From UHGV virus genome UHGV-0191547: 26,648 nt of DNA; one strand, given 5' to 3'. Below are positions 3,370-18,864 of the stretch, in pieces; within the stretch, counting starts at the first letter, position 1; every line of letters begins with the position of its first letter. The translations under genes and the position numbers were made by a program. This DNA comes from a virus. The notes beneath the pieces are model-generated. The model worked only from the letters and a program-made list of their open reading frames with translations, was not told where the DNA came from and did not search any database.

Positions 3370-4029
3370 TTAATTCCAGTTGCAAGCGTTTTTTACTTTG
3401 TCGATGTGGTTATAAAGACCATCAATGTTAAACACTGCTTTCTCAATGTCGCCAGCTTCCGGCACTACTTCAATGATAAATTGTTTTTCGTTAACCAGAT
3501 TTTTAATCATTGGGATGGCTTTTTTGTCGTTCCATAATCCAAGAGCTTTATAGTTAGTTGACCGCCCCCATTCAGTGGCTACAGCTTTGTGATCGCCGAT
3601 CCGGTAGTTAATATAAGTAGCGTCCCCGGCGTCAGTTACACGGTGTGACCATGCTACGAACATTTTTGTTTTATTACCCTGGCAAGCAATTGTTAATACC
3701 GGTTTATTATTATCCTGTGCCTTCAGTGCCGGGAAGGCATCAAGACTTCCGCTAAAATGATCTGCTTTCACAAAAAGGAACACGTTTTTTGTGTCCTGCA
3801 TATCATCTTTTCTTTCGACCACAAGCCACTGTTTACCAGCTTTTTCTTTTGCTAACTGTGCCTCATATGCGGCTTGTTTTGCTTGTTGTTCCGCAAGCCA
3901 TTTAGCATTTTTCTCAGCCAATGCTTGTTGTTCTTGAGTGGTCACTATAGGCGCTTTTTCATTATCCTCATTGCAACCAACCAGACCCAATACCGCCGCA
4001 ATCATTGCCACTTTTGCTAACTGTTTCAT
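3370..4029 (-). CDS. Lipoprotein, antisense cargo cassette A
   Basis: 219 aa; N-terminus MKQLAKVAMIAAVLGLVGC is a signal peptide with lipobox L-V-G-C; Ala/Gln/Lys-rich predicted coiled segment after the lipidated Cys. Confidence 0.65.
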   Translation of the reverse strand: MKQLAKVAMIAAVLGLVGCNEDNEKAPIVTTQEQQALAEKNAKWLAEQQAKQAAYEAQLAKEKAGKQWLVVERKDDMQDTKNVFLFVKADHFSGSLDAFPALKAQDNNKPVLTIACQGNKTKMFVAWSHRVTDAGDATYINYRIGDHKAVATEWGRSTNYKALGLWNDKKAIPMIKNLVNEKQFIIEVVPEAGDIEKAVFNIDGLYNHIDKVKNACNWN

Positions 4030-4289: not shown

Positions 4290-6629
4290 ATGGCTACCAG
4301 TGTAGGTACAATTTATTACGAAGTTGATGCAAAAACTGGTCAACTTCTCGTTGCACAACGACAGGCAGACCAGGCCTTTGACCGTATAGAGCGCGGCGCA
4401 AAACAGGCTGACCGCCAGGTAAACACCCTGAAAACATCCATCAAGGCACTGACCAGGGTTATCCATTTGCTAATTGCTGCCGAGGCTGTGCGCCAATTTA
4501 TGGATATGGCGGAGCAAGCCAAAATGCTTCGCGTAAAAATCAAATTGCTTACAGGTGAAGCGGAGGCAACGGAACGGGTTTTCAACAGACTGAAAGAAAT
4601 ATCAAAAGAAACAGGCCAAAGCCTCAAGGATACTGGTGCCCTGTGGCAAGGTCTTGCTATATCGCTAAAAAACACATCCGCCACAGAAGGCCAGGTGCTC
4701 AACCTGGTCAGCACGCTGCAAAAACTTGGTAACTTGGGCGGCGTGTCTGCGGAACAACTATCAAACTCCATGCTTCAGTTCCGCCAGGCTATTGATGCTG
4801 GCGTGTTGCAGGCGGAAGAGTTCAACTCAATACGTGATAACACCCCAACAATCATACAGGAAATGGCCCGACAGATGGGGTTATCTATGGGGCAGTTCCG
4901 CGCCGAAATGCTGGACGGCAAGATCACGGCTGAAAGGATGCTCAACGCGATCCAGGCGGCTACGCAGGAAACAAACGAGAAGTTTGCACAGTTACCGCGC
5001 ACGTCCGGTATGGCTTTTAATGAGCTTAAAGTCGAGGTGATGGGACTTGTCGAACAACTTGATGATCTTTTCGGCATATCAGATGGCGTTGTGTCAGCTA
5101 TCGACTTAATAACTGGTGGCGTTGAGGGATTAGGTAAAGGCGCAAAATTCGCCGCAACCTGTTTCAATACACTAAAAACGGCTGGCAGTGAGTTTATCGA
5201 CATGTTTGATGATGTTGCTGTTAAAGCTGGTGAGGTGGCGGAAGAGATTATCAGGATGGTAACGCCAATCAAAGCGCTAATGGATGGCTACAAATGGATG
5301 AAGGAGATCATTGATAAACGCAAGAATGAGCTAAACAGCAACAACGAAAAGAAATTCGGCCCTACAGTCGGTAAGGTCATGACGTTTGCAAATGACATCA
5401 AAAATGCGACCGCCGCTTATGATGAGTTTATGCAGAAACAGGGTGAGGCTGATGACGGCAAGATCACCGGATTCGATCAGCCAGTTGGCAAGCCGAAAAA
5501 AGGGAAAAAAGACAAGAAATCTGAAGCTGATCGGCTTGGTGATGAAGGCATAAAAGTATCCGACCAGTACAACAAAGACGCCGCAGCTATGCGCAAAGCG
5601 TTAGAGAACGGCAAGGCCATTGATGCTGCATTCGCCCAGGGTAAAATCACTCTCCTTGAGTACCGCGCCGCGCAAAAAGGGATAGGTAAGGAACTGAAGG
5701 AAGAATTAGCGCAAATTCCGGTAGATGAATTGCGTGATAAATGGGCGCAAATAGTAAGCCCGATGGATCAGCTTAAAGGTGAGGTTGACCCTATCCAGCA
5801 GGTGCAGAATGAATGGGCCGTCCGTAAGCAAATGCTTATCGACCTGGGCGTTACTGAAGCGCAACAGAAACAGGAACTGTTAGCCTATGAGCAACAGATC
5901 CGTGATCTGAAGTGGGAACAGTGGCAGGCACAAAGCGATACAAACGGCCTTATCGGTGATTGCGTTAATGGCCTAAAAGGTGGTATGAGCAATGCACTTG
6001 TTGGCCTGTTAAATGGTACTCAATCATTGAGTGATGTTTTTGCTAACTTAGGCAGCAATATCCTCGGGAATATCGGTAACAGGCTTTCAGACATAGCTGC
6101 AAACTGGATAGCAGATCAGATCATGATGGAAACGCAAAGCAAAGCGACTCAGGCAAGTACCACGGCGGGCGCGGTAGCGGCGCAAGGCCAGATTGCTGCG
6201 GCGGCGGCCCCGGCGGCGGCGGCAACAGCGGCGTCAACTGGCGGCGCATGGGCGGCGGCTGGTTCTGCGGCACTCACTGCGATCATGTCGCTGGCTACGT
6301 CAATTTTCGGCGGCGGTCGCTTTAATGGTGGTAGCGTTATTGGTGGCAATATGTACCGCGTAGGGGAACACAACAGGCCGGAGCTATTCCAGACATCTAA
6401 CGGAAATCAATATATGATCCCAGGCGAGAATGGCAGGGTTATTCCTGGGCGTGATATTGGCGGTGGCGGCGGCATTAGTATGCCTGTCAATATCAACATT
6501 CAGACCACAAACGGATTTAGCGACGAAGACAGTCGCAGACTTGAGCAAACAATGGAACGTGTAGCAATGAAGATGATAACAAGGGAATCACAAAGACCTG
6601 GAGGAATATTGCAACCGCGCCGCAAATAA
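4290..6629 (+). CDS. Tail tape measure protein
   Basis: 779 aa, alpha-helical N-terminal two thirds, Ala/Gly-rich low-complexity tract (AAAAPAAAATAAS), located between chaperone and gpM homologue. Confidence 0.9.
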   Translation: MATSVGTIYYEVDAKTGQLLVAQRQADQAFDRIERGAKQADRQVNTLKTSIKALTRVIHLLIAAEAVRQFMDMAEQAKMLRVKIKLLTGEAEATERVFNRLKEISKETGQSLKDTGALWQGLAISLKNTSATEGQVLNLVSTLQKLGNLGGVSAEQLSNSMLQFRQAIDAGVLQAEEFNSIRDNTPTIIQEMARQMGLSMGQFRAEMLDGKITAERMLNAIQAATQETNEKFAQLPRTSGMAFNELKVEVMGLVEQLDDLFGISDGVVSAIDLITGGVEGLGKGAKFAATCFNTLKTAGSEFIDMFDDVAVKAGEVAEEIIRMVTPIKALMDGYKWMKEIIDKRKNELNSNNEKKFGPTVGKVMTFANDIKNATAAYDEFMQKQGEADDGKITGFDQPVGKPKKGKKDKKSEADRLGDEGIKVSDQYNKDAAAMRKALENGKAIDAAFAQGKITLLEYRAAQKGIGKELKEELAQIPVDELRDKWAQIVSPMDQLKGEVDPIQQVQNEWAVRKQMLIDLGVTEAQQKQELLAYEQQIRDLKWEQWQAQSDTNGLIGDCVNGLKGGMSNALVGLLNGTQSLSDVFANLGSNILGNIGNRLSDIAANWIADQIMMETQSKATQASTTAGAVAAQGQIAAAAAPAAAATAASTGGAWAAAGSAALTAIMSLATSIFGGGRFNGGSVIGGNMYRVGEHNRPELFQTSNGNQYMIPGENGRVIPGRDIGGGGGISMPVNINIQTTNGFSDEDSRRLEQTMERVAMKMITRESQRPGGILQPRRK

Positions 6630-6635
6630 ACGAAA

Positions 6636-6663
6636 CCCCGGTACAATGCCGGGGTTATCTTTT
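6636..6663. terminator. Rho-independent terminator after the tape-measure gene
   Basis: CCCCGG-tacaatg-CCGGGG hairpin followed by TTATCTTTT. Confidence 0.6.
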
Positions 6664-6838
6664 AGTTATTCTCAAAACTTGTATATCCTCTTTCAATTTT
6701 CCCGCCTCTTACACTTCTTGCAAATACTGCATCATTATGTTTGAAAAATGGTTCAGTATATGTGTCTCCTTTACTATCCATCCATTTCACGATCCAGGCT
6801 ATACGTTTTACATTGCTTTTATTTGCCTGGTTTTTCAT
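6662..6838 (-). CDS. Possible small protein (58 aa), third gene of cassette B
   Basis: Hand-translated - strand ORF MKNQANKSNVKRIAWIVKWMDSKGDTYTEPFFKHNDAVFARSVRGGKIERGYTSFENN with RBS GGAGGAAAATAAA before the ATG. Confidence 0.3.
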   Translation of the reverse strand: MKNQANKSNVKRIAWIVKWMDSKGDTYTEPFFKHNDAVFARSVRGGKIERGYTSFENN

Positions 6839-6956
6839 TTTATTTTCCTCCGCAAATTACAATCTTCCGTTTCTGGCTATATAGCTGCGAGAAAACATCA
6901 CCAACCAAATATTCCAGATCTCCCTCCAGGTGAATTTATCGTCCTCCATACCCACC

Positions 6957-7211
6957 TCACTTATGGCAACCGCGAACGCCAGACAATTCATTGAATTTAT
7001 GGTGTTCAACAATCACCCACTCTTTCAGATCCTGGCTATAGACTCGCCAGTCTAAATTGGCGCGGAAGGCGTAGCCGTAACCGTCTTTCAATTTTTTGGG
7101 TGACGCATTCTTGTTTAAAAACGCGTTCAAAAGTTCCTTTGCTTTTTTGACTACATGTCCCGGCGCGTTTTTCTGTGCTTTCAGATTTTTGTCAATCGCT
7201 ACCAGTTTCAT
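6957..7211 (-). CDS. Small protein with RelE/ParE-like toxin signature (candidate mRNA interferase)
   Basis: 84 aa; C-terminal KKLKDGYGYAFRANLDWRVYSQDLKEWVIVEHHKF resembles the RelE/ParE core pattern kLkG..g.yelRvgdyRviY....ilrigHRk recalled from memory. Confidence 0.4.
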   Translation of the reverse strand: MKLVAIDKNLKAQKNAPGHVVKKAKELLNAFLNKNASPKKLKDGYGYAFRANLDWRVYSQDLKEWVIVEHHKFNELSGVRGCHK

Positions 7212-7228
7212 AACTCACCCCATCATCC

Positions 7229-7384
7229 TTAGTTAAGTGCCTTCAGGAAGAAGTCCCGGTATTCATCTTCTTTTGCATTCATCATGAATTGACCGTATTT
7301 GAATGCGTCGTCGAAACCCTTAACGATTGCTATTTCCACTTGTTCGAATGCGTTGTTTAGCATTACCACTACATAGCGTTTCAT
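7229..7384 (-). CDS. Small protein (51 aa) upstream of the RelE/ParE-like gene; possible antitoxin partner
   Basis: Internal start MKRYVVVM chosen over the ORF-track start at 7459 because it has a strong RBS (GAAGGAGG, 6 nt spacing); the 7459 ATG lies inside the conserved promoter element. Confidence 0.4.
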   Translation of the reverse strand: MKRYVVVMLNNAFEQVEIAIVKGFDDAFKYGQFMMNAKEDEYRDFFLKALN

Positions 7385-7425
7385 TTTGGGCCTCCTTCGT
7401 TGGTACTGCTTTTCTTCTTGCTTTC

Positions 7426-7454
7426 TATATACATCTTGATGCGTGATATGTGAA
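7426..7454 (-). promoter_or_regulatory. Candidate sigma70 promoter for cassette B (TTCACA-N17-TATATA) with upstream CAAAATGG element
   Basis: - strand reads CAAAATGGC-TTCACA-17 nt-TATATA; 17 of 18 nt identical to the cassette A element at 4233-4250. Confidence 0.4.
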
Positions 7455-7553
7455 GCCATTTTGTAAACTAGCTATAATCATTGTGATGAAGATCTCATTT
7501 TTTGCGTAGAATCGCGTAAAAGTATATACAAAATGTAAATTATAGGGGGATTT

Positions 7554-7907
7554 ATGCCTGAAGTGTTCCGATGGACACCACAAAGAAGCTACAGCGTAAA
7601 CAGTGAGCCTAACGTGTCTGTCATTAAGCTGGGTGATGGGTATGAACAGCGCCAGACAAAAGGGATTAACCCTTTACTTGATAGCTACAGCCTGGTTTTT
7701 AAAGGCACAAGCGCCGGATGCGGTGACGCCGGAAACGTGGCGCTCCAAGTTGACGCATTTTTAAGGGCGCGTTGCGCGGTCGAGGCGTTTTACTGGACTC
7801 CATCAACTGACGGGGTGCAAAGGCTTTTTGTATGCAGAAAGTGGAGCATGACGAAAGACGGCCCGGTATGCACGCTAAACGCAACTTTTGAGCAAGTTGT
7901 CAATTAA
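7554..7907 (+). CDS. M: Minor tail protein M
   Basis: 117 aa; FRWTP...GDGYEQR and C-terminal ATFEQVVN match the lambda gpM pattern (recalled ...FSAEFEQVVN). Confidence 0.85.
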   Translation: MPEVFRWTPQRSYSVNSEPNVSVIKLGDGYEQRQTKGINPLLDSYSLVFKGTSAGCGDAGNVALQVDAFLRARCAVEAFYWTPSTDGVQRLFVCRKWSMTKDGPVCTLNATFEQVVN

Positions 7908-7920
7908 TGGAGGTGTCAAT

Positions 7921-8106
7921 ATGTATGCTATTTGTGTAGTGGACCGCACGGGCGCTTTTACATTGTTTGACGACTATGAAATCAACGATCTTACTGTAAA
8001 GGCTGATAATGGCGAGATCTGGTATCTTCATGATGTTGGTGACGGGTATGTCGGATGCAGATCGAGAGAGGGTAGGGAAGTTTTATTTTTACTTGATGGC
8101 GTATAA
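7921..8106 (+). CDS. Small hypothetical protein (61 aa) inserted between M and L in sense orientation
   Basis: Start MYAICVV with RBS GGAGGTG; followed directly by a strong hairpin terminator; lambda has no gene here. Confidence 0.4.
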   Translation: MYAICVVDRTGAFTLFDDYEINDLTVKADNGEIWYLHDVGDGYVGCRSREGREVLFLLDGV

Positions 8107-8111
8107 ACACG

Positions 8112-8140
8112 ACCCCGCGCGAAGCGGGGTTATTATTATT
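8112..8140. terminator. Rho-independent terminator (CCCCGC-gcgaa-GCGGGG then TTATTATTATT)
   Basis: Hairpin plus T-rich tail; 8112-8134 is the exact reverse complement of 16307-16329. Confidence 0.6.
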
Positions 8141-8252
8141 CCATTTCCATTAACGCTATATTTTCTGCTATCGTTTTCCAGTCCAGATCTACAGCATGAA
8201 CACCAAATACTATCAATCCCATTGCGATTAGTGCTAAAACTTCGATTTTCAT
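8136..8252 (-). CDS. Possible small hydrophobic peptide (38 aa), last gene of cassette C
   Basis: Hand-translated MKIEVLALIAMGLIVFGVHAVDLDWKTIAENIALMEME with GTGAGG RBS; one predicted hydrophobic helix. Confidence 0.25.
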   Translation of the reverse strand: MKIEVLALIAMGLIVFGVHAVDLDWKTIAENIALMEME

Positions 8253-8343
8253 AATCAACCTCACTTAATTAAGAAAGGCATAAACGATGGCAATCGCGCC
8301 AGCCACTACCAAAACATTTCGATCACTTCGTCTACTTTATTGA

Positions 8344-8547
8344 TTAAGGTAACTCCACTTCGTTAAATGTAACAAGCACCCCTTGATTTTCTTTATTTAT
8401 AATTATGAAGGCATTAATTGAAGGCAGACATCTTTCCACGCGGTAAACGTCACCAATATCTAAACTGTAATATTCTGTTAATTCTCTATTGTTCCCTTTA
8501 GCAAAACCCGTAAACCTAACCATTTTTTGACCGTCGTACTTTAACAT
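8344..8547 (-). CDS. Hypothetical protein (67 aa), cassette C
   Basis: - strand ORF with AGGA RBS, tightly packed with neighbours; AT-rich. Confidence 0.45.
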   Translation of the reverse strand: MLKYDGQKMVRFTGFAKGNNRELTEYYSLDIGDVYRVERCLPSINAFIIINKENQGVLVTFNEVELP

Positions 8548-8555
8548 ATACAGTC

Positions 8556-8804
8556 CTATAGGTTATCACGCAGATAATTAACGCCTTTGTCAGTGACGAA
8601 TGAGTGATTAACCTGGTTTTCATCCGTCATGATGATGAATGACTTTTCCTGTAGGTATTTCGCTTTTGGGTACAGCGTTAAACAGACCTGGTACAGTATC
8701 CCGCGCTCAATCAGCAAATCAATAAATTCGTGCTCATGATAACCGACGAGGCGGGCGGCTTGTTTCAACGTGTACACATAATCGCCGTGATTGCGCCGCC
8801 CCAT
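8556..8804 (-). CDS. Hypothetical protein (82 aa), cassette C; possible helix-turn-helix
   Basis: Segment YTLKQAARLVGYHEHEFIDLLIERGIL has a helix-turn-helix-like pattern; no family recognised. Confidence 0.45.
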   Translation of the reverse strand: MGRRNHGDYVYTLKQAARLVGYHEHEFIDLLIERGILYQVCLTLYPKAKYLQEKSFIIMTDENQVNHSFVTDKGVNYLRDNL

Positions 8805-8813
8805 GTTGCCGCC

Positions 8814-9161
8814 TTATTTATCGAATGCGCCCAGGTTATCTATGCAGAAGTCTTTCGCAGCTTTTTCGTATTCGCGTTTTGCTTGCGGATCGTCTGCCGG
8901 GAAACCTTTTGCGTGTATTTCACCAGGGCAAGACTGATCCATAGAATCAGCAAATTCAACATTGACGTTAAAGTTAATATCTTTCGGATTCATGTTTTCC
9001 ACCTCATCAATTATCTGCACCGGATTAGCGGCATATTTCACTGGATGGCCTAAACTACATTCAAGAATCCTTCCTTCTTCCAAAGCTGCCTCTTCGCTAT
9101 CAAATAATCCGAAACACTCCTTGCAACCACTTAACCACACATCAAGACTATATTTTTGCAT
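8814..9161 (-). CDS. Hypothetical Cys-containing acidic protein (115 aa), cassette C
   Basis: - strand ORF with GAGAGG RBS; CKEC...C...SCPGEIH cysteines suggest possible metal binding. Confidence 0.5.
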   Translation of the reverse strand: MQKYSLDVWLSGCKECFGLFDSEEAALEEGRILECSLGHPVKYAANPVQIIDEVENMNPKDINFNVNVEFADSMDQSCPGEIHAKGFPADDPQAKREYEKAAKDFCIDNLGAFDK

Positions 9162-9173
9162 TTCGTTAACCTC

Positions 9174-9329
9174 TCATTTGACAGGTTCGATTCTGTACCC
9201 CAAAACGCGTTCGTCTTCAGCGAGTAATAGCGCGTCAGTCAGTGCCTCGCCTTCGTCTTTATACAGAGCTACAGTCATTTCCCTGCCACCTGACAGGAAT
9301 ACCTTCAACCTCCACACCTTATCAGCCAT
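9174..9329 (-). CDS. Hypothetical small protein (51 aa from MADKVWRL), first gene of cassette C
   Basis: Internal start preferred (RBS GGAGGTG, 6 nt spacing); the ORF-track start at 9404 overlaps the predicted -35. Confidence 0.4.
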   Translation of the reverse strand: MADKVWRLKVFLSGGREMTVALYKDEGEALTDALLLAEDERVLGYRIEPVK

Positions 9330-9375
9330 CTCACACCTCCGCGCCATTTTGTTAACTGTGCTTCCGTTTGAGTAA

Positions 9376-9404
9376 AATATACATATTGTATAAACCGCGA
9401 TCAA
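9376..9404 (-). promoter_or_regulatory. Candidate sigma70 promoter for cassette C (TTGATC-N17-TATATT) with upstream CCAAAATGG element
   Basis: - strand reads CCAAAATGGA-TTGATC-17 nt-TATATT; same architecture as the cassette A and B elements. Confidence 0.35.
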
Positions 9405-9458
9405 TCCATTTTGGTATGATTTAGCGTGACGCAGATCACAAAATCAGAAGGTGAGAAA

Positions 9459-10163
9459 ATGCGCAATATACCTACAGAGATGATTATTGATTCCGTGGAC
9501 GCTGGTGTGGGCGCGGTGATTGACTTGTTCGAACTGGACTTGTCGCCCCTGGGTGGCGAGGTTATCCGCTTCCATTCCGGCGCGAATGGCTATTACGGCC
9601 CGGTTATCTGGAAGGGATTAACTTACAACAGCTACCCGATCGAGGCTACTGGCTTCGAAATGAAAAACGAGGGCGTTTATTCGCGGCCTCAAATGGTTGT
9701 AGCCAATATCGGCGGGCTAATCACAGGGATGAATAACGACTTCAACGACCTGCGAGGAATGAAGGTTACGCGCCGCCAGGTGGAAGTAAAATACCTGGAC
9801 GCCGTTAACTTCCCAAACGGCAATCCAGACGCAGATCCATCTATTGAGGCTGTATCTTTTTACGTCGTGGAGGCCATGAGCGAGGAAACAGCGGATCAGG
9901 TGCAATATGAGCTGTCAACGCCAATTGATGCTGATAAGGCCGTTATCCCTGGGCGCACCATCCTTGCTGACGTTTGCCAGTGGCAATACAGAGGCGACGG
10001 GTGTATGTACGCTGGCGGACCAGTAGCAAACGATAAAGACGAGCCGACAAGCGATCCTAAAGCCGACAGATGCAGCCACCGTCTAAGCGGTTGTCGTTTG
10101 CGTTTCCCGCGTCCAAATCCGTTACCGATTTCCTGTTTCCCTGGTTCCAGTAAGGTAGGTTAA
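9459..10163 (+). CDS. L: Minor tail protein L
   Basis: Start at MRNIPTEM (RBS AGGTGAG); VTRRQVEVKYLDAVNF and PGRTILADVCQWQYRGDGC match recalled lambda gpL blocks. Confidence 0.85.
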   Translation: MRNIPTEMIIDSVDAGVGAVIDLFELDLSPLGGEVIRFHSGANGYYGPVIWKGLTYNSYPIEATGFEMKNEGVYSRPQMVVANIGGLITGMNNDFNDLRGMKVTRRQVEVKYLDAVNFPNGNPDADPSIEAVSFYVVEAMSEETADQVQYELSTPIDADKAVIPGRTILADVCQWQYRGDGCMYAGGPVANDKDEPTSDPKADRCSHRLSGCRLRFPRPNPLPISCFPGSSKVG

Positions 10164-10165
10164 TC

Positions 10166-10897
10166 ATGGTAATGGAAGACAAAATGTTGCGTTATGCCGC
10201 CGCGCATCCGTTTGAAGAAGTTTGCGGACTGGTAATAGATAACGAATATTTTTACCCGTGCGCTAACGTGTCTGAAACGCCCTACAACAGCTTCAAAATT
10301 TCGCCGGACGATTACATCAAAGCTGACGAATTGGGCGTTATAACCGCCGTTTTTCACTCTCACGTTGATGATATTCCGGTATTGTCGGCACGGGATCGAC
10401 AACAGCAGGTTATTTCAGGACTACCCTGGCTTTTGTATTCAGGCGGAAGGATCAGGAAATTCCGTCCGGTAGCGCACCTGTTAGGCAGAAAATTTGAACA
10501 CGGGAAAACAGACTGCTACGCGCTTTTCCGCGACGCCTATCACCTTTGCGGCGTGGATCTGCCTGACTTCGAGCGCCTTGATGGGTGGTGGTTGCGTGGT
10601 GAAAACCTGTATTTAAAAAACTTGCCTCTAAACGGGTTTTTCCAGGTTGACGCTAAAAGCATACAGCCTGGAGATGTAATTATCCGGCAGCCGTTTAAAG
10701 GCGCGGACCCATGCCACGCGATGATTTACCTGGGCGATAACACTGTTTTGCATCATGACAATGCCGGACTGCTAAGCCGCCGCGAGCAAATGCGGCCCGC
10801 TTATGTTCGACAAACGCATTCAATATGGAGATCTGATAAATGCTCAAATTTAGATTTACGGGCAATCTTCGAAGATATTACAGCAAAGTGTGTTTAA
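10166..10897 (+). CDS. K: Tail tip assembly protein K (NlpC/P60 plus JAB/MPN-like domains)
   Basis: FHSHVDD (JAMM-like) and GKTDCYALFRDAYHL (NlpC/P60 Cys) motifs; collinear with lambda gpK in my recalled alignment. Confidence 0.85.
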   Translation: MVMEDKMLRYAAAHPFEEVCGLVIDNEYFYPCANVSETPYNSFKISPDDYIKADELGVITAVFHSHVDDIPVLSARDRQQQVISGLPWLLYSGGRIRKFRPVAHLLGRKFEHGKTDCYALFRDAYHLCGVDLPDFERLDGWWLRGENLYLKNLPLNGFFQVDAKSIQPGDVIIRQPFKGADPCHAMIYLGDNTVLHHDNAGLLSRREQMRPAYVRQTHSIWRSDKCSNLDLRAIFEDITAKCV

Positions 10898-11370
10898 ACG
10901 TTGAAACGCCAGCGCAAGGACTTCGCTTGTTGACCGCGCAGAATCAGGAATTCAAGAAGGCGTTTTTAAATACACCTTTGCGTTTACGAATTTCCGGGAA
11001 AGATTACGACGAAAAGACCGCGCCCGCTGCGGTTAATAGCAAATATCCAGATGGGACTACGGTAATTATTGCGCCAATAGTGGAAGGTGGTATTGCAGGG
11101 ATCGGTGTGGTCGGTTGGATTATGATCGGAATATCAGTTGTTAGTGTCGCATTTTCTATTTTCATGTCTCGCAACATGAAGGTGAAAACATCATCAGAAA
11201 GCGCACAGGATAACACCATAACAAACAACAGTTACACCAGCATAGAAAACAGGGTGGGCCAGGGTAGACCAGTGCCAATTTTATTGGGTGAAATGAAAGT
11301 AGGTTCAAACGTCGGATCGTTAGGCATAGACACAACAAACAATAAAGACGCCTTAGACGTTGTAAGTTAA
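10840..11370 (+). CDS. I: Tail assembly protein I
   Basis: GEMKVGSNVGS matches recalled lambda gpI GEMRVGSRVVS; Gly-rich hydrophobic central segment; overlaps the K 3' end in another frame. Confidence 0.8.
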   Translation: MLKFRFTGNLRRYYSKVCLNVETPAQGLRLLTAQNQEFKKAFLNTPLRLRISGKDYDEKTAPAAVNSKYPDGTTVIIAPIVEGGIAGIGVVGWIMIGISVVSVAFSIFMSRNMKVKTSSESAQDNTITNNSYTSIENRVGQGRPVPILLGEMKVGSNVGSLGIDTTNNKDALDVVS

Positions 11371-11384
11371 CAGGAGAAATAACC

Positions 11385-14300
11385 ATGAGTAGCGGCGGCG
11401 GCAAAGCAAAAACACCAACTTTAATTAACGATAATCTATATCACAAACAGTTTTATCGTGTACTCGACATTATTTCAGAAGGTCCGATTTATGGTCCTGT
11501 TAATACCAATGCGCCATTAAACAGCGTAATGCTTAATGACACCCCTGTAACTGACGCGAACGGCAATACCAGCATCCCCGGTATTAGCGTAGCGTGGCGC
11601 AATGGTACGATAGATCAATCACCGATTAACGGTTTTAACGCCATTGAATCAACCGTTATTGTTAACGCACAGGTTAAACACGATACACCAATAATCAGGA
11701 CCGTTTCCGATCCTAACGTAAACCGCGTTCGCCTGAATATCGGCGTCGATTCACTTGTACAATCTGACGAGCAAAGCAATCAACATAACACATCGGTTAT
11801 GATGATGATTGACGTGAAGCCTTCGTCTTCTTCTACGTGGACGCTTGTTAAAGACGTTACTATAGGCCCAGGTAAGATCAGCGGAGAATATCTTGAAGCG
11901 CATATTATCAATGCACCAGATGAAAAACCGTTTGATATTCGCGTTCGCCGTGTAACCGCTGATAGCACAAGCGATCTGTTGCAGAATGATACGCGATGGA
12001 GTAGCTACAGCGAAATAATCGACGATAATTTGTCTTATCCTCACACCGCTGTAGCTGGCGCGGTAATTGACCATGATCAGTACGCTGACACGCCTACCCG
12101 CACCTATCACCTTCGCGGGCTGATTGTTGATATTCCTGATAACTACGACCCGGAAAAGCGCACTTATTCCGGTTTGTGGCTTGGCGGCTTCAAACAGGCG
12201 TACACCAATAACCCAGCATGGATCTTCCGCTATCTGGTTAAAAACGAGCGTTTCGGCCTTGCTCGTCACGCTGGCTATATTGACGTTGACGACGGCGCAT
12301 TATATACGCTTTCTCAATACTGCGACCAGTTGGTTGATGATGGCTACGGCGGCCTTGAGCCTCGCATGACGCTTAACGCTTACATCACAGAGCAAATGAG
12401 CGCCCGCGACTTACTGGACAATATCGCCGGGATGTTCAGGGGTATCGCGTTATGGGACGGGCAACGCCTTACCGTGATGATTGATGCACCACAAGACCCG
12501 ATCGCCACCATTACAAATGCAAATGTCGTTGATGGCGCGTTTACTCGTTCAAGTATCGCCCGCGCAGAATGCTACAACGCCGTGATCGTATCATGGACTG
12601 ACCCGGAAAACGGATGGGAGCAATCAAAAGAGTATGTAGCAGACGATGAACTGATCGCCCGTGATGGTTACAACGAAACCACGTTAGAGGCGTTCGGGTG
12701 CACATCACGCGGGCAAGCATACCGCGCGGGCAAGTGGCTGATAGAAACAGCAAAACGCGAGCCGTCAAAATTCACGTTTAAAATGGCGCGTGACGCGATT
12801 CACTTTACGCCAGGGGATATTATCGAGATACTCGACAATAACCGCGCAGGCGCTCGTTTAGGCGGCCGCATCGTTGCGAACAACGGCAAAGTAATAACGG
12901 TAGATAAGGTTGACGCCAATTATATCGCCGCTGGGGATACAATCAGCCTTCTTGATAGCGATGGCAAGTTTAAAAAGCATCAGATCACCGGGGTGAGCGG
13001 AAACAAAATCACACTGGCGGCGGCCCCGTCATGGATTCGAAACGGCACTGTTTTTGCTGTATCCACTGAATCAGCAAAACCCGTTTTGTGCCGGATCACC
13101 AGTGTAGCCGAAACAGAAAATAACAGCGTGTACACCATCGAGGCCGCACAGCACGACCCGAACAAGCAAGCAGTGGTCGATGAAGGCGCAATATTTGAAG
13201 TCAACAATGACACGCTTAACCATTTCCGCGTGCCGAACATTGAAAATCTGAAGGTGGTAAACATTGGATCGGAAACAATTCAATGTCGCGCCACATGGGA
13301 AACGCAGACAACAACGCATCGTATGACATTTGAGATCCGCATATATAATGCAGATGGTGCGGTGGTTAAAAGCTATGAAACAACGAAATACAGTTATGAT
13401 TTTTATGGCATTGACGCTGGCGTGTATTCTTTAGGGGTTCGCGGAAGAAATGACACTGGCATGAAGGGCGCGGAAAGTATTGTGGATCTGGTTATTGGTG
13501 CGCCAGCAGCGCCAATAGGTGTTAACTGGGTACCAGGTGTATTTCAGGCTACCGTATACCCGATAAGTAAGACAACGCTAACCACTGATACAGCGTATGA
13601 ATTCTACTATGCAGGGGAAAACCAGATCACAGATCCGGCAAAAATAACCACGGCGGCACAGTTTACCGGGCGCGGGTATCAGTGGACGTTCGGCGGAATG
13701 AACACGGGCCATACTTATTACGTTTATGTGCGTACACGTAATGCTTTTGGCGTGTCAGACTTCGTTGAAGCATCAGGTAAGCCGACAGAAAATTTTGATG
13801 AAATTAGCGATTACGTCACCAAAGACGTGATGAATTCCGAACAATTTAAAGAAATGGTGGGCGACATTAAGGATCTTGGCGATCGCACTGACATTATCGA
13901 AAGTGCAACTCAAGACCTTAAAACAGCTACTGATACCCTAAGCGGAATAACTGAAGGCTTAAGAACTGATACTGATAATTTAATTACAGAAACAGAATCA
14001 ATTAAAGCTGATACTGATTCCCTTAAAAAAGACACTGAAGACCTTTACAAGAAAGTCGAAGAAAACGCCGATGAAATAGGTAAACATGAGGTAAGAATTG
14101 ACTCATTAGAGGTATCAAGCGAAAACGTAGATAATGAACTGGCACAGACAAAAGCAAGCCTACAAAACGCATCGCTTGCTCTTATTAATAATTCGCTTGC
14201 TCAAACTAATACCAGAAGAACGCTGACAGCTCAGATCAAAAACGTGGATTATGAAACTAAGGCGCAAATAGATCGCATTGATAACGTGATTGTCAGTGAA

Positions 14301-16304
14301 AAAGAAGCAAGAGCGGAGGCAATGGAGACAATTACCGCCGAAATCGACACGATGGATAAAAACATCAAAGGTGAGATTGCGCGCGTAGATACTGCCATTG
14401 CCAATGAGAGCCAGGCAAGGGCTGATGCCATCAGTGAAGTTAGCGCAAACATTGACGCACTTGATAGTAAAACAGATGCCAGTGTTAATCGTCTTGATCA
14501 AGCTATCGCAGATGAGGCCAGCGCACGCGCACAGGCTATCAGCAATGTCAATGCGAGCATGACAAATCTTGATAACAAGGTTACAAGCAACGTTTCTAGA
14601 CTTGATCAGGCAATAGCTGACGAATCAAGCGCAAGAGCAGAAGCCGATGATCAGTTAATAGCAAAAAGCGAAAAACTTGATGGTGATCTCGCTATGGCAA
14701 GGGCAAGCCTACAAAACGCTTCGCTTGCTCTCATCAATAATACATTGTCTCAGACAAAGACAAGGCGCACTCTCACAGCGGAGTTCAAACGCGGACAAAG
14801 TGAAACTAAAGCACAAATTGACCGTATTGATAATGTCATTACTGACGAAAAACAGGCAACAGCGGAAGCGTTTGAAACTATCACAGCAGAAATGAACACG
14901 ATGGACTCAAACATTAAAGGAGAAATATCACGATTAGATAAAGTGATCGCGACTGAAACGCAAGCAAGATCTGAAGCTATAAGTAGTGTTAATGCAAGCA
15001 TAAAGACGCTAGAAAGCGACACTGAAGCCAGCGTTAACCGTCTTGATCAGGCAGTTGCTGACGAGGCCAGCGCCCGCGCACAAGCTATCAGCGGAGTAAA
15101 TGCAAGCATCAGCACGCTTGATAGCAAGGTTACAAGCAATGTGACCCGTATCGACAAAGCTATTGCAGATGAGACGCAGGCCCGCACAGACGCAATAAGC
15201 AACCTTAACTCATCGCTTACCAGTACGATTAATTCTAAAGTATCTGAAGTATCAACAGCACTTTCTACGCATGAAGCATCAAGCGCGGAAAAATTCAGCC
15301 AGATCTCAGCGTCTTTCGAAGCTGTAAACTCAAGCATCACGGAATGGTCGCAGACCATGACAACGGCGGACGAGGCATTATCAACCAAAATTGATCAGTT
15401 AACAGTAACCGTTAATGGGAACACAACAGCGATCGAGACGACATCGAAAGCGTTAACCGACTTCAAAGGTAATGTTGATGCGTCATGGTCAATCAAGATT
15501 GCTACTGATAACAACGGCATGAAATACGCTACAGGTATGTCGCTTGGCCTGACTGGTAGCGGGACTAACGTTCAATCGCAGTGTATTTTCCTCGTTGACC
15601 GCTTCGTGTTAATGACCGCAGCAAACGGCACATATACAACGCCTTTCTATGTGTCTAATGGTGCAATGTATGTGAAAGAAGCGTTTATTAAAAACGCATC
15701 AATAGGTACAGCTAAAATTGCAGATGCAGCCATTACTATGGCTAAAATTGTTAATGAAATAAAATCATCAAACTATGTTGCTGGTTCTAAAGGTTGGAGG
15801 ATAACACAAAGCGGATCATCAGAATTTAACGATGTTGTGGTAAGGGGCGAAATCCATGCTAATAGCGGTAAATTCAAAGGAACTGTAGAAGCTACATCCT
15901 TTGTTGGTGATGTCGCATCTACTAACGTTATACCGCAATCATCATTCCCTGGGACAAGTACAAGCGGATCTCGATCTGTTACGAAGACGTATAAAGATTC
16001 ATCATCAAGCTCGCTTTCGAAAACAGTTTTCGTAATGATTCCTTACCATCTTACTTATTATACTTATTCAGGATCATCAACAATAAAAGTAACAATTGAT
16101 ATTAATGGCAATAGCAAAACATATAACGTAGTAAGGGCGGCATCATCGCCTCAATTCGGATTTACGGTATCACATTGCGTAACTGGGATTACTGCTCAAA
16201 CAGTTACGATAAAAATAACAGAGGAATACACCAACACCGGAACATCAGCAGAAAGAAGGCCAGGTCTTGCACTTGTTACAAGAAGCTCAGGATCATGGTC
16301 ATAA
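11385..16304 (+). CDS. J: Central tail fibre / host specificity protein J with an expanded coiled-coil repeat region
   Basis: 1639 aa; N-terminal ISEGPIYGP, FGCTSRGQAYRAGKWL and the C-terminal KYATGMSLG...FLVDRF block match recalled lambda gpJ; about 500 aa of heptad-like repeats inserted between them. Confidence 0.9.
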   Translation: MSSGGGKAKTPTLINDNLYHKQFYRVLDIISEGPIYGPVNTNAPLNSVMLNDTPVTDANGNTSIPGISVAWRNGTIDQSPINGFNAIESTVIVNAQVKHDTPIIRTVSDPNVNRVRLNIGVDSLVQSDEQSNQHNTSVMMMIDVKPSSSSTWTLVKDVTIGPGKISGEYLEAHIINAPDEKPFDIRVRRVTADSTSDLLQNDTRWSSYSEIIDDNLSYPHTAVAGAVIDHDQYADTPTRTYHLRGLIVDIPDNYDPEKRTYSGLWLGGFKQAYTNNPAWIFRYLVKNERFGLARHAGYIDVDDGALYTLSQYCDQLVDDGYGGLEPRMTLNAYITEQMSARDLLDNIAGMFRGIALWDGQRLTVMIDAPQDPIATITNANVVDGAFTRSSIARAECYNAVIVSWTDPENGWEQSKEYVADDELIARDGYNETTLEAFGCTSRGQAYRAGKWLIETAKREPSKFTFKMARDAIHFTPGDIIEILDNNRAGARLGGRIVANNGKVITVDKVDANYIAAGDTISLLDSDGKFKKHQITGVSGNKITLAAAPSWIRNGTVFAVSTESAKPVLCRITSVAETENNSVYTIEAAQHDPNKQAVVDEGAIFEVNNDTLNHFRVPNIENLKVVNIGSETIQCRATWETQTTTHRMTFEIRIYNADGAVVKSYETTKYSYDFYGIDAGVYSLGVRGRNDTGMKGAESIVDLVIGAPAAPIGVNWVPGVFQATVYPISKTTLTTDTAYEFYYAGENQITDPAKITTAAQFTGRGYQWTFGGMNTGHTYYVYVRTRNAFGVSDFVEASGKPTENFDEISDYVTKDVMNSEQFKEMVGDIKDLGDRTDIIESATQDLKTATDTLSGITEGLRTDTDNLITETESIKADTDSLKKDTEDLYKKVEENADEIGKHEVRIDSLEVSSENVDNELAQTKASLQNASLALINNSLAQTNTRRTLTAQIKNVDYETKAQIDRIDNVIVSEKEARAEAMETITAEIDTMDKNIKGEIARVDTAIANESQARADAISEVSANIDALDSKTDASVNRLDQAIADEASARAQAISNVNASMTNLDNKVTSNVSRLDQAIADESSARAEADDQLIAKSEKLDGDLAMARASLQNASLALINNTLSQTKTRRTLTAEFKRGQSETKAQIDRIDNVITDEKQATAEAFETITAEMNTMDSNIKGEISRLDKVIATETQARSEAISSVNASIKTLESDTEASVNRLDQAVADEASARAQAISGVNASISTLDSKVTSNVTRIDKAIADETQARTDAISNLNSSLTSTINSKVSEVSTALSTHEASSAEKFSQISASFEAVNSSITEWSQTMTTADEALSTKIDQLTVTVNGNTTAIETTSKALTDFKGNVDASWSIKIATDNNGMKYATGMSLGLTGSGTNVQSQCIFLVDRFVLMTAANGTYTTPFYVSNGAMYVKEAFIKNASIGTAKIADAAITMAKIVNEIKSSNYVAGSKGWRITQSGSSEFNDVVVRGEIHANSGKFKGTVEATSFVGDVASTNVIPQSSFPGTSTSGSRSVTKTYKDSSSSSLSKTVFVMIPYHLTYYTYSGSSTIKVTIDINGNSKTYNVVRAASSPQFGFTVSHCVTGITAQTVTIKITEEYTNTGTSAERRPGLALVTRSSGSWS
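14154..15200 (+). repeat. Intragenic tandem duplication in J (two diverged units of about 550 bp, roughly 183 aa each)
   Basis: Both units open with GCAAGCCTACAAAACGC (14154 and 14704) and contain nested VNRLDQA(I/V)ADE(A/S)SARA sub-repeats. Confidence 0.8.
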
Positions 16305-16306
16305 AA

Positions 16307-16335
16307 AATAACCCCGCTTCGCGCGGGGTTTTCTT
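16307..16335. terminator. Rho-independent terminator after J (CCCCGC-ttcgc-GCGGGG then TTTTCTTTT)
   Basis: Hairpin plus T-run; reverse complement of the 8112-8134 element. Confidence 0.6.
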
Positions 16336-16584
16336 TTAGTAGTTAGCTACACAATTCGACGGGCTACCTATGCGGCGCATGTTGTGATCGAGTTCATGAC
16401 ACCATTGACCAGTATATGGCAGTTTTTCAGTGTCATATACAAGATGACCATTAGCATCATAGACGATTTCTTGTGGAATCACTCCGCTATTTGGCAGGTT
16501 ATGCAATGCAGCTTCTTTGTCAACAGCGCAACCAGTAAGAGCAACAGCCGCAGCGAATAAAACCACTTTGAACATGTTTTTCAT
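16336..16584 (-). CDS. Small lipoprotein (82 aa), antisense cassette D between J and the tail fibre
   Basis: MKNMFKVVLFAAAVALTGC signal peptide with lipobox A-L-T-G-C; single gene between two terminators. Confidence 0.6.
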   Translation of the reverse strand: MKNMFKVVLFAAAVALTGCAVDKEAALHNLPNSGVIPQEIVYDANGHLVYDTEKLPYTGQWCHELDHNMRRIGSPSNCVANY

Positions 16585-16761: not shown

Positions 16762-18552
16762 ATGATTTATACAACGGGAACAATTGCCATTAACGGCAAT
16801 ACTGTTACAGGCACGGGAACAAACTTTTCCGCGCCGCTTTCTCTCATCCGTGTAGGTTGCACGCTCATTGCCATTAGCAATCCTATCCAGATCTTTACCA
16901 TCACAGAAATTAAGAGCGGTACTGAACTGTCAGTGACGCCAGCGGCTAACCCTGCAATTGCTGCCGGGGCAAAATTCAGCATTCTGCTTTCTGACTCTAT
17001 CTCAGTTGATGGGCTTGCCCAGGATGTAGCGGAAACACTTCGTTTTTATCAGGAAAAAGAAGACGAAATATCCAGCGCAATAGATGGCAGCAATATTGGC
17101 TTAGGTCCAGAGCCGCGCGATTGCGTCGATATATCAGGCGATCCGTCTTCTTACGTTGGCTTTTTGCGCATAAAGGAAACGACTAAGGGTTTTCCTTCTG
17201 TAGCGGCTGGTGAATCATTTTTGAGTGGATTTATCTGTCAACGAGACACGACGCCTTCATATACAGGCGTCTTTGTCGGTTGGGCTACGCGATCACTTTA
17301 TACGTATACATGGGTCGCAACATCAGGTCCGAACTGGACACGACACGCAAGAAAAGATGAGGTGGATAGGCTTGTTCAAAGAACAGGAGAAACTCGCGTA
17401 CGCGCTCAAAACGCAAATAAATTCCTTACCGTCTATGATTCAGGATCGTGGGGTTATTATGACTCAGAGGCTAGTAAATGGCTACCGCTTCCAGTTCTTG
17501 CTGGAGGCACTGGTGCGGGAAACGCAGAAGAAGCAAGAAATAATTTAAATCTTGGTGAAAGCAACGCGGTTAAATTCAAAAACCTTACGTTAATAGGGGC
17601 GCTAGATGCAAATTTAGGCATGCTCGTAAAAACTGGAAGAGACTGGAATACTCAGCACACTGACAATATCCAAAAATTTATACCAATGGCAGGAAGCACA
17701 AACGGACCCGCCGGAGCAATGGTACTCGGTGGCTTCCATGTGCAATACAGCACAAATTACGCTGTGCAATTCGGGGGTCGAAATTCCGGTTTTTGGGGTA
17801 GAACAATTGAAAACGGAACAGTTCAGGAATGGCGTCAACTAGCTACGCTTAACACATCCGGTCAAAAATGGACTGCCGGTCAGCATTTTGTGACGACAAA
17901 AATTAACTCTTATGATTTCACAAGACGTTTAACTATCGATGTGATAGAAAACGCAAAAACAAACGCACGGTTACGCTTATGGGGATCAGAAACAAGGCAG
18001 TCCGTTTTAGAATATGGACTCTCGAACGCTGAAACCGATGAGTATAATACATATGGCTTTTATTGCCAGCTTAACCCAGACGGAGTAATTAGTTTTCAGG
18101 TTAACGGCGTAGTAAACTGCACAGCAGTTAATCAGACTTCAGATCGCGATCTGAAGGACAACATTCAGGTTATAGGTGATGCAACTGAAGCAATCCGTAA
18201 AATGAACGGGTACACCTACACCCTCAAGGAAAACGGCCTGCCTTACGCTGGCGTTATCGCTCAAGAGGTAATGGAGGCGCTGCCGGAGGCTGTGGGATCG
18301 TTTACTCATTACGGTAAAGCATTACAAGGCCCGACCACTGACGGCAACGAGCTACGCGAGGAAACGCGTTACCTCAATGTTGACTACGCTGCGGTGACTG
18401 GTTTACTTGTTCAGGTGGCACGCGAAACAGATAACCGCGTCACCGAACTGGAGGAAGAAAACGCCAGCTTACGAGCTAACATTGCCGTCATGGATGAGCG
18501 GATCACAAAACTTGAAGCGCTTGTCAGGCAGTTAACCGGAAGCGAAGAATAA
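16762..18552 (+). CDS. Tail fibre/tailspike protein with C-terminal intramolecular chaperone (peptidase S74-like) domain
   Basis: 596 aa; C-terminal TSDRDLKDNIQVIGDATEAIRKMNGYTY...YAGVIAQEV followed by a coiled coil is the S74 autoproteolytic chaperone signature. Confidence 0.75.
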   Translation: MIYTTGTIAINGNTVTGTGTNFSAPLSLIRVGCTLIAISNPIQIFTITEIKSGTELSVTPAANPAIAAGAKFSILLSDSISVDGLAQDVAETLRFYQEKEDEISSAIDGSNIGLGPEPRDCVDISGDPSSYVGFLRIKETTKGFPSVAAGESFLSGFICQRDTTPSYTGVFVGWATRSLYTYTWVATSGPNWTRHARKDEVDRLVQRTGETRVRAQNANKFLTVYDSGSWGYYDSEASKWLPLPVLAGGTGAGNAEEARNNLNLGESNAVKFKNLTLIGALDANLGMLVKTGRDWNTQHTDNIQKFIPMAGSTNGPAGAMVLGGFHVQYSTNYAVQFGGRNSGFWGRTIENGTVQEWRQLATLNTSGQKWTAGQHFVTTKINSYDFTRRLTIDVIENAKTNARLRLWGSETRQSVLEYGLSNAETDEYNTYGFYCQLNPDGVISFQVNGVVNCTAVNQTSDRDLKDNIQVIGDATEAIRKMNGYTYTLKENGLPYAGVIAQEVMEALPEAVGSFTHYGKALQGPTTDGNELREETRYLNVDYAAVTGLLVQVARETDNRVTELEEENASLRANIAVMDERITKLEALVRQLTGSEE

Positions 18553-18581: not shown

Positions 18582-18610
18582 GAAACGAGGCTAACGCCTC
18601 GTTTCTTTTT
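18582..18610 (+). terminator. Rho-independent terminator after the tail fibre gene
   Basis: GAAACGAGGC-taac-GCCTCGTTTC hairpin followed by TTTTT. Confidence 0.65.
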
Positions 18611-18864
18611 GTGTACCAAATAGTGACCAAAATGATAAATCAAAAACAAAAACAAAACATAACACATTGAATACAAATGAATTTTTCATTAAGTTATCCA
18701 TTCAAAAGATAAGTAGGTAACGCCATTTCTATCATTTCATATCGTGTCACATCGTCACCGTTTCACGTTGATTTCAAAAGAAATATTTATTCTATCGTGT
18801 CATATCGTTTTCTATCGTGATACTATCCATGCGTAAAATGTGTGTACCAAATAGTGACCAAATT
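18610..18864. promoter_or_regulatory. attP-like AT-rich region with a 22-bp perfect direct repeat and TATCGTG heptamer repeats
   Basis: TGTGTACCAAATAGTGACCAAA at 18610-18631 and 18841-18862; three or more TATCGTG copies in between; located immediately 5' of int. Confidence 0.4.

Follow-up and report, generated by a model that had tools for sequence, protein, structure and literature searches.

Why should one 23-bp hairpin sequence stand in opposite orientations at two gene borders of the same phage genome? The window analysed here, a stretch of 26,648 nucleotides, derives from a mEp021-type (mEpimmI) temperate coliphage. Its nucleotide identity is 92.5% to MagusPhagus and 84–87% to mEp010, mEp013, mEp021, mEp044, mEp515 and mEp554, and gene order is colinear in all relatives compared (Magus and these six mEp phages). 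The sequence ACCCCGCGCGAAGCGGGGTTATT is located at 8112–8134 on the + strand, with its exact reverse complement at 16307–16329 (− strand). Exactly two matches to this 23-mer were found in the window with up to three mismatches allowed, and none of 100 dinucleotide-preserving shuffles of the window contained one, which bears out the pair of exact reverse complements reported in the original prediction.

Copy A (8111–8131, both strands) has arms at 8113–8118 and 8124–8129 around a loop at 8119–8123 (GCGAA on the + strand), giving the core CCCCGC/GCGAA/GCGGGG at 8113–8129, extended by G8111/A8112 with T8130/T8131. Copy B (16310–16330, both strands) has arms at 16312–16317 and 16323–16328, a loop at 16318–16322 (TTCGC on the + strand), the core CCCCGC/TTCGC/GCGGGG at 16312–16328 and an AA/TT extension; it is flanked by an A-tract at 16303–16311 and a T-tract at 16329–16337. 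The match had been said to cover the loop and a flank as well as the stem. It is indeed exact, but the flank is weaker as evidence than it seems. Among the six flank bases of the 23-mer, A...TT match in reverse complement automatically, because they prolong the stem palindrome (AACCCCGC..GCGGGGTT). The remaining ATT lies within tandem TAA stops at A and within the A-tract after the J stop at B, and is probably shared by coincidence.

Both hairpins fill gaps of 29–31 bp between a rightward gene and the final gene of a cassette of leftward accessory genes, and the same stem is formed on both strands between the converging stops (8104–8106 on + and 8136–8138 on − at A; 16302–16304 on + and 16336–16338 on − at B). 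At A, the rightward gene is a 61-aa ORF of unknown function (7921–8106, +; phrog_3249), kept in all relatives. It follows a gene for an M-like minor tail protein (7554–7907) and is a putative tail gene at most. The leftward gene (8136–8252, −) is the last of leftward cassette 2 (8136–9404) and encodes a small hydrophobic protein of 38 aa (MKIEVLALIAMGLIVFGVHA...). This protein is 79% identical over 33 aa to the mEp021-type protein (BLASTP), and its C-terminus is replaced relative to that 45-aa homologue, which ends in ..INY*. At B, the rightward gene encodes a J-like central tail fibre or host specificity protein, as annotated in relatives (11385–16304, +), with its stop 5 nt before the extended stem and 7 nt before the core. 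The leftward gene ending at hairpin B encodes a lipoprotein (16336–16584, −; lipobox LTGC, phrog_12984) that appears similar in sequence context to the type-C Lpp of mEpimmI phages; Lpp010, of type C, excludes LamB-using phages (PMC11893012). Of the predicted meeting of a + tail gene with a − cargo gene, the convergence is seen at both sites; for the 61-aa ORF at A the tail-gene label is only putative.

The predicted RNA folds of copy A have energies of −16.1 (+ strand) and −16.3 kcal/mol (− strand) and those of copy B −16.0 (+) and −19.5 kcal/mol (−), with z scores of −2.9 to −5.0 against shuffles at both sites and on both strands. Downstream of hairpin A for rightward transcripts, a terminator scan identified the T-rich tract TTATTATTATT (8130–8140, +), which includes three tandem TAA stops (8130–8138, − strand) of the small leftward gene. 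The U-tract at A is moderate on the + strand (UUAUUAUUAUU) and weak for leftward transcripts (UCGUGUUUAUA, the complement of 8102–8112), and B has strong U-tracts on both strands (UUUUCUUUU; UUAUUUUUU). Rho-independent terminators are annotated at the same junctions in the GenBank records of mEp010, mEp013, mEp021, mEp044, mEp515 and mEp554: site A carries TERM_11/TERM_12 on both strands in mEp021 and T15, T17, T18 and others in other mEp phages, and site B is annotated in mEp010, mEp013, mEp044 and mEp554. When the entire window was compared with Rfam at gathering thresholds, no family was matched. The bidirectional terminator that had been proposed is recovered in its sequence features, a hairpin with a T-tract on both strands (a weak one for leftward transcripts at A), and in the annotation of relatives, and A and B are presumed to function as such. 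In the literature found, the terminators assayed in mEpimmI phages are those of the early region (PMC11893012).

Compared with the bidirectional intrinsic terminators known from convergent gene pairs of E. coli and coliphages, A and B are alike in the perfect G+C-rich stem, the short loop, the A-tract/T-tract and the placement in about 30 bp between converging stops. They differ in the poor leftward U-tract of copy A, and in that several of them sit inside what is expected to be a single late tail operon, an arrangement that implies antiterminated read-through. The transcript of either strand would fold into a G+C stem of 6–8 bp followed by a U-rich tract. The hairpins would end leftward cargo transcripts before these run antisense into the tail genes, and would stop rightward transcripts that lack antitermination. 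Late transcription would read through them, presumably via N-/Q-like, Nus-dependent antitermination; antitermination has been attributed to the mEpimmI group (PMC11893012).

The relation between the two copies becomes visible in relatives. In mEp013 and in one viral contig (L066), A and B form a direct repeat of about 44 bp that runs from the A-tract through the hairpin and T-tract into the final codons (..NY*) of the leftward gene. In mEp013 the two copies agree in all 17 nt that follow the hairpin (TTTTCTTTTAGTAGTTA), as they do in L066, and in mEp013 the similarity drops to a random level (14/60) past +37. In mEp021 and mEp515 the direct repeat is present in a slightly diverged form. Judged from these alignments, hairpins A and B are true paralogues, homologous and not convergent, in agreement with the idea of a reused module. 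The homology is limited to the 44-bp module, since the small A protein and Lpp gave a BLASTP E value of 5.5 with only the last residues similar; a decayed Lpp paralogue at junction A was rejected on the same result.

How, then, did the orientations come to differ? Among 38 junction-A sequences, the loop on the tail strand reads GCGAA in 29, including the window, and TTCGC in nine. Contig L018 (TTCGC) and mEp044, mEp010 and L057 (GCGAA) have the same TAAAAACAA / TTTTTCTTGT flanks and differ in the 5-nt loop alone; stem and flanks are the same and the loop is the exact reverse complement, as in a loop inversion. The loop of copy B is TTCGC in every copy seen (12 viral contigs, six phages and CSP1C), with no flip in about 19 copies, and TTCGC is therefore taken as ancestral. 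An origin from modules inserted in opposite directions is not supported, and the opposite orientation is better described as an in-situ flip of five nucleotides within unchanged flanks. A cassette inserted backwards was discarded because same-flank relatives carry either loop state, as was inversion of the 8.2-kb segment between the copies, since the relatives are all colinear. An assembly artefact would not be expected either, since stems of 6–9 bp fall well below the k-mer lengths used by assemblers and independent isolates and metagenomes repeatedly show both states. In a homoplasy test on the upstream 380 nt at A, loop orientation went with the adjacent spacer, and even the closest pairs of opposite orientation differed by 6–7%, so only one flip can be claimed there; its direction and the number of flips at junction A rest on parsimony.

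The most probable explanation, and one that we hold with considerable confidence, is that A and B are paralogous copies of one bidirectional Rho-independent terminator and that the loop of A was later inverted in place. The copied unit would be the module of about 44 bp, with the 3' end of lpp as its original home, copied in direct orientation. In a sublineage including the window, the loop of copy A would then have changed from TTCGC to GCGAA in place, with stem and flanks constant; copy A reads as the reverse complement of copy B because the flipped loop sits in a palindromic stem. The most likely cause would be a short inter-strand template switch across this stem during replication. The flip, which barely alters the predicted stability, is probably neutral. 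Template switching at perfect stems is a documented source of inverted loops in RNA hairpins (PMC8794818), and recurrent inversions are reported in the palindrome of the chloroplast trnH-psbA spacer (PMC2903610). The present case is like these hairpin-loop ('minute') inversions in that the stem is kept, the loop is reverse-complemented and the flanks stay constant, and in its recurrence at one site on different backgrounds; it differs by its occurrence in phage transcription terminators. In a literature search of incomplete coverage, nothing specific was found on terminator loop inversion in phages or bacteria.

Other hairpins of this phage group flip as well. A third bidirectional terminator-like hairpin (6634–6656, both strands; AACCCCGG-TACAATG-CCGGGGTT) lies between the tape-measure gene (4290–6629, +) and leftward cassette 1 (6662–7459, −). 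Its stem ends are as in A/B, though it is not a copy of them, and relatives carry a variant with the loop flipped. At the same junction, the hairpin GGCCGC-TTATA/TATAA-GCGGCC shows its two loop states in four versus three sequences and on two flank backgrounds (L146 vs L136; L029 vs L048/L135), L146 and L136 having identical flank haplotypes. The other of the two hairpins that flip at the tape-measure junction reads CCCCGGCACAATGCCGGGG in L169 and CCCCGGCATTGTGCCGGGG in L034 and L134. Terminators 3006–3022 and 18582–18605 had no loop flips in 15 and 11 copies, respectively. In total, at least four flip events were found at three of the six hairpin types examined, one of them between contigs otherwise nearly identical over about 750 bp.

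The cassettes bordered by these hairpins consist of leftward accessory genes for a ParE-like protein, a KilAC-like protein, a small membrane protein and an Lpp exclusion lipoprotein. Their content varies among Magus and the mEp phages with synteny otherwise kept. In related phages, too, the hairpins stand at cargo junctions; B is tied to lpp and A to the backbone. Five different cargo 3' ends abut hairpin A, which stays with the conserved rightward backbone, and alignments between relatives end at its edge (window 8131–8135). Hairpin B co-occurs with type-C lpp, and a different hairpin is present where lpp is of type A. The suggestion that the terminator was carried in with the cassettes is accordingly supported for B and not for A. 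Hairpin B together with the J-3'/lpp-3' sequence is also found in CSP1/CSP1C phages (CSP1C examined), a segment of about 540 bp (J 3' end, hairpin, lpp 3' end) being shared with phage CSP1C at 82–86%. In the window, J ends in a 3' sequence of a different type, and similarity to the CSP1C/mEp554 type sets in exactly at the hairpin (16304).

Morons, in descriptions of the Juhala and Hendrix type, are promoter–gene–terminator units inserted between late genes of lambdoid and other temperate phages. The present cassettes are alike in having leftward accessory genes of variable content between conserved tail genes, with a terminator ending each cassette, and they differ at junction A, where the terminator is fixed to the backbone instead of the variable cargo. 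As to a promoter of their own, a promoter-like TTGATC-17-TATATT occurs at 9404–9376 (− strand), and the scan overall gave no enrichment of sigma-70-like sites over shuffles (15 versus 24.7 expected). Cor/Llp-type systems are modules of a receptor-binding protein plus a cognate exclusion lipoprotein. As in the modules with Lpp of mEpimmI phages (PMC11893012), lpp in the window lies tail-to-tail with J; the difference is again the other type of J 3' end.

Other histories of the pair were weighed against loop inversion in place. The orientation of A could also stem from ectopic short-patch conversion or recombination with the antiparallel copy B, or with a B-type copy in a co-infecting phage. Most genomes of the group carry both copies, window A matches the reverse complement of B at three non-palindromic flank bases, and mosaicism is high in these phages, with breakpoints at the hairpins. 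However, mEp044, mEp010 and L057 differ from L018 in nothing beyond the loop, and the palindromic arms available for pairing are just 6–8 bp. Moreover, the tape-measure-junction hairpins also flip with one match per mEp-type contig in an IMG/VR scan and no donor copy seen, which favours a mechanism that needs no donor. Conversion is regarded as unlikely, although sequence alone does not separate template switching from conversion by antiparallel copy B at A.

An independent origin, in which selection for a strong G+C hairpin gave the same sequence twice, was considered very unlikely. Convergence does occur, as the bare 17-mer is found in about 30 unrelated viral contigs, mostly of high G+C content, and a scan of GTDB species representatives returned the 19-mer in 51 bacterial genomes, all unrelated and none from the Enterobacteriaceae. 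Yet the identity in relatives runs 17 nt past the hairpin into the stop and last codons with a similar A-tract, the loops are identical save for orientation, and the extended direct repeat, present in mEp013 and L066 and slightly diverged in mEp021/mEp515, argues strongly against it. It is highly improbable, in our view, that the hairpins serve recombination or mobility instead of termination, as attC-like, REP/MITE-like or invertase targets that capture cassettes or invert the 8.2-kb L-K-I-J segment. Breaks in homology between genomes often coincide with hairpin edges, as at 8131–8135 and, with CSP1C, from 16304, and the window copies are inverted repeats, but the intervening segment is never inverted in the colinear relatives. 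Among the proteins scanned, one recombinase was found, a tyrosine integrase (18817–20064) that has an arm-binding domain and adjoins the likely attP. With that sole enzyme and a short perfect palindrome with T-tracts, an integron attC-like site was rejected; such a stem with A/T tracts is typical of a terminator, belongs to no Rfam family and is not dispersed in host chromosomes. Of the 5426 complete E. coli genomes scanned, 39 contain the motif, at no more than two places each; the features annotated under most matches are phage tail genes, and the two feature-less matches inspected both lie within mEp-type prophages. The motif is thus neither a host terminator of wide occurrence, which would have spoken against the original prediction, nor a REP/BIME-like repeat dispersed in the host.

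The kind of element is already known and the evolutionary twist is modest, leaving the current view of terminators and morons unchanged. Annotators and comparative genomicists should note that a short 'inverted' repeat at a palindromic terminator can look like an inverted insertion when the loop alone has flipped, and the recurrent flips in phage terminators might offer a modest natural measure of template switching at hairpins. As a tentative and rather doubtful generalization, loop flips may be unusually frequent at the terminator hairpins of this phage family, and these hairpins may be preferred breakpoints in the exchange of cassettes and receptor modules. If both were true, loop flip-flop and mosaic recombination would share one driver, the formation of hairpins or cruciforms at terminators while the phage replicates; alternatively, breakpoints may fall at gene borders through selective tolerance. 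As for this gut coliphage family itself, two-way terminators appear to divide the tail operon into segments and to insulate the leftward accessory genes, and late expression must then depend on antitermination. One of these terminators would have been copied along with the last codons of an exclusion-lipoprotein gene, and the block of J end, terminator and lpp end would move between unrelated phages of the mEpimmI and CSP1 types.

The region shares 92.5% identity with Escherichia phage MagusPhagus and 84-87% with mEp010, mEp013, mEp021, mEp044, mEp515 and mEp554, which are described as Nus-dependent, non-lambdoid 'mEpimmI' temperate coliphages (PMC11893012). Rightward genes encode the tape measure (4290-6629), an M-like minor tail protein (7554-7907) followed by a 61-aa ORF (7921-8106), L, K, I and J (9426-16304), a tail fibre (16762-18552) and, after it, a tyrosine integrase with an arm-binding domain (18817-20064). 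Leftward are cassette 1 (6662-7459), holding a ParE-like toxin domain protein, cassette 2 (8136-9404; a small membrane protein, a KilAC-like protein and others) and a lipoprotein gene (16336-16584). The 61-aa ORF and cassette 2 are separated by 29 bp, where hairpin A lies; hairpin B lies in the 31 bp that separate J from the lipoprotein gene.

In cassette 1, flanked by the tape-measure gene and the M-like tail gene, an 84-aa protein (6957-7211, - strand) with the ParE-like domain (Pfam PF24732, E 1.2e-7) adjoins a 76-aa protein (7229-7459, - strand; phrog_29810, function unknown), and the two may form a toxin-antitoxin pair. A 219-aa leftward gene (3370-4029, - strand) that matches the Pfam family VasI (type VI secretion; E 2.3e-14) is flanked by a DUF6246 gene (2325-3014, + strand) and the tape-measure gene, and its cassette ends in another bidirectional hairpin (3006-3022, GCCCGG-TAGAT-CCGGGC). 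The 82-aa KilAC/ANT-domain protein of cassette 2 (8556-8804, - strand; Pfam PF03374, E 2.3e-6) is conserved in every relative's junction-A cassette; labelled 'antirepressor' in prophages, it is far shorter than typical antirepressors. The tail fibre has a Peptidase_S74 intramolecular chaperone domain at its C-terminus and varies widely among relatives, both in sequence and in length (1350 to 3483 nt). Since the GenBank records of mEp010, mEp013 and mEp044 stop at window position ~18678, attP is probably located at 18680-18816, before the integrase gene, so that the window would represent a non-integrated (circular or permuted) form. Repeats of the motifs TATCGTGTCA/TATCGT at about 18730-18830 are possible arm sites for the integrase.

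The 23-mer ACCCCGCGCGAAGCGGGGTTATT on the + strand at 8112-8134 recurs as its exact reverse complement at 16307-16329. No further match with up to three mismatches was found in the window, and none of 100 dinucleotide-preserving shuffles contained it, confirming the match on which the original prediction was built. Both sites share a 17-nt core, CCCCGC-loop-GCGGGG, with loop GCGAA at A (8119-8123) and TTCGC at B (16318-16322). The prediction that the identity extends beyond the palindromic stem holds for this loop, and the match of the flank is weaker evidence. Of the six flank bases, A...TT extend the stem (AACCCCGC..GCGGGGTT) and, being part of the palindrome, match automatically; the other three (ATT) belong to a series of tandem TAA stops at A but to the A-tract that follows the J stop at B, and their match is regarded as a coincidence. 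A third hairpin (6634-6656) shares the ACCCCG/CGGGGT stem ends with A and B and has a different interior.

Based on a consensus scan, a terminator is called at both sites on both strands. RNA fold energies lie well below those of shuffled controls: at A they are -16.1 and -16.3 kcal/mol, and at B -16.0 and -19.5 kcal/mol. The U-tracts of B are good both ways; those of A are moderate rightward and weak leftward. All six mEp relatives (6/6) have Rho-independent terminators annotated in GenBank at exactly these junctions, and in mEp021 junction A has one on each strand, TERM_11 and TERM_12. An Rfam scan of the window gave no match, and the terminators tested in PMC11893012 belong to the early region only. 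Together with the paralogy of the two copies discussed below, the annotations, folds and two-strand calls agree with the proposed reused bidirectional terminator, and we infer this function for A and B. As N-like (Gp17, experimental) and Q-like antitermination with host Nus factors is attributed to the mEpimmI group (PMC11893012), the late tail operon might still be expressed through antitermination despite several internal terminators.

A widespread host-genome terminator, which would have undone the original prediction, was rejected as the source. Of 185,579 GTDB species-representative genomes scanned, 51 contain the 19-mer core; these belong to unrelated taxa, with no Enterobacteriaceae among them. 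Among 5426 complete E. coli genomes, 39 matched a 50-nt query around B. Most of these matches fall on annotated phage tail genes, and two inspected matches without features are at junction A of mEp-type prophages. The bare 17-mer also occurs in about 30 unrelated viral contigs, mostly of high G+C, so the hairpin alone is no proof of homology; the flanks are. In mEp013, A and B have the same orientation and identity runs on for 17 nt past the hairpin (TTTTCTTTTAGTAGTTA), covering a T-tract and the end of the leftward gene, with its final codons (..NY*) and stop. The 10-nt A-tract upstream is similar at both sites, with few positions different, and beyond +37 nt identity drops to the random level (14/60). 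This extended repeat is also present in IMG/VR contig L066 and, slightly diverged, in mEp021 and mEp515. Because the ~44-bp repeated unit includes coding sequence, convergent origin is ruled out, and the comparison indicates that A and B are paralogues. Past those last residues, protein comparison found nothing significant in common between the junction-A small protein and the lipoprotein Lpp. Two further IMG/VR contigs, L058 (~6796) and L076 (~12934), have the same 17-mer followed by GTTTCTTTTAGAATAGTTGCC, resembling the T-tract and gene end of the lpp module, with the other flank unrelated to mEp phages; they may represent another lineage with a related terminator and gene-end module.

The opposite orientations could have arisen by opposite insertion of two modules, a reading rejected because relatives show an in-situ flip of the 5-nt loop between the same flanks. 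Junction A was compared in 38 sequences, of which 8 are phages (the window among them), 28 are IMG/VR contigs and 2 are E. coli prophages; the loop on the tail-gene strand is GCGAA in 29 and TTCGC in 9. Sequence L018 (TTCGC) shares both of its flanks (TAAAAACAA and TTTTTCTTGT...AGTAGTG.ATATACAGCAA) with mEp044, mEp010 and L057 (GCGAA), and across hairpin and immediate flanks it differs from them only in the five loop bases, an inversion of the loop in place. Copy B is TTCGC-oriented in all copies examined (12 contigs, 6 phages and CSP1C; mEp044 has an ATCGC variant) and the extended repeat is seen with this orientation; TTCGC is therefore taken as the probable ancestral state at A and GCGAA as derived. 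The nearest junction-A pairs of opposite orientation are 6-7% apart over the upstream 380 nt, and a single flip is enough for this junction. Flips also occur at the tape-measure junction, where one hairpin reads GGCCGC-TTATA-GCGGCC in four contigs and GGCCGC-TATAA-GCGGCC in three. L146 and L136 differ by the flip although their variable sites agree throughout upstream and, of the first 150 downstream variable sites shown, differ at one; a second flank haplotype also carries the flip (L029/L051 vs L048/L135), pointing to at least two flip events or recombination exactly at the hairpin. Another hairpin type at this junction reads CCCCGGCACAATGCCGGGG (L169) or, flipped between homologous flanks, CCCCGGCATTGTGCCGGGG (L034, L134). 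No flips were seen at copy B, in 15 related copies of the 3006-3022 hairpin or in 11 copies of the 18582-18605 hairpin. Conversion from the second copy might also have changed the loop of A, but single-copy hairpins flip as well, which favours inter-strand template switching at the stem as the likely route. Loop inversion at perfect stems by such switching is a described mutation class (PMC8794818), and recurrent palindrome-associated inversions are mentioned for the chloroplast trnH-psbA spacer (PMC2903610).

The suggestion that the terminator was carried in with the cassettes fits B, which travels with the type-C lipoprotein gene, but not A. Neither hairpin A nor the 61-aa ORF upstream of it varies, and the 3' ends of the first leftward gene that abut the hairpin are of five kinds; the 38-aa protein of the window and the 45-aa mEp021-type protein are 79% identical over 33 residues and then diverge. 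Megablast alignments of about a dozen E. coli prophages with the window end at its positions 8131-8135, where the hairpin has its 3' edge. At the B position, mEp021 and mEp515 have a different lipoprotein cassette and a different hairpin (TTGCCCCGCC..GGTTGGGGCAA). A ~540-bp block of 82-86% identity is common to mEpimmI phages and the otherwise different Escherichia phage CSP1C (3621-4156, vs 12856-13393 in mEp554). It takes in the terminal ~380 nt of J, the hairpin and ~125 nt from the 3' end of lpp, although overall identity of the Lpp proteins is no more than 57%. The same 42-nt match was obtained in Cronobacter phage CSP1. Homology between the window and CSP1C starts exactly at 16304. B thus lies in a mobile block joining the J 3' end, which we infer to be receptor-binding, to that of the exclusion lipoprotein, and can be a recombination breakpoint too. 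Lpp010 (type C) experimentally excludes LamB-using phages (PMC11893012).

The element is known in kind, as an annotated terminator in relatives, and so is the mutation, a hairpin-loop inversion. Modestly new are the duplication of an lpp-end terminator module, the recurrence of loop flips in phage terminators, and the J-end/terminator/lpp-end block common to mEpimmI phages and CSP1C.
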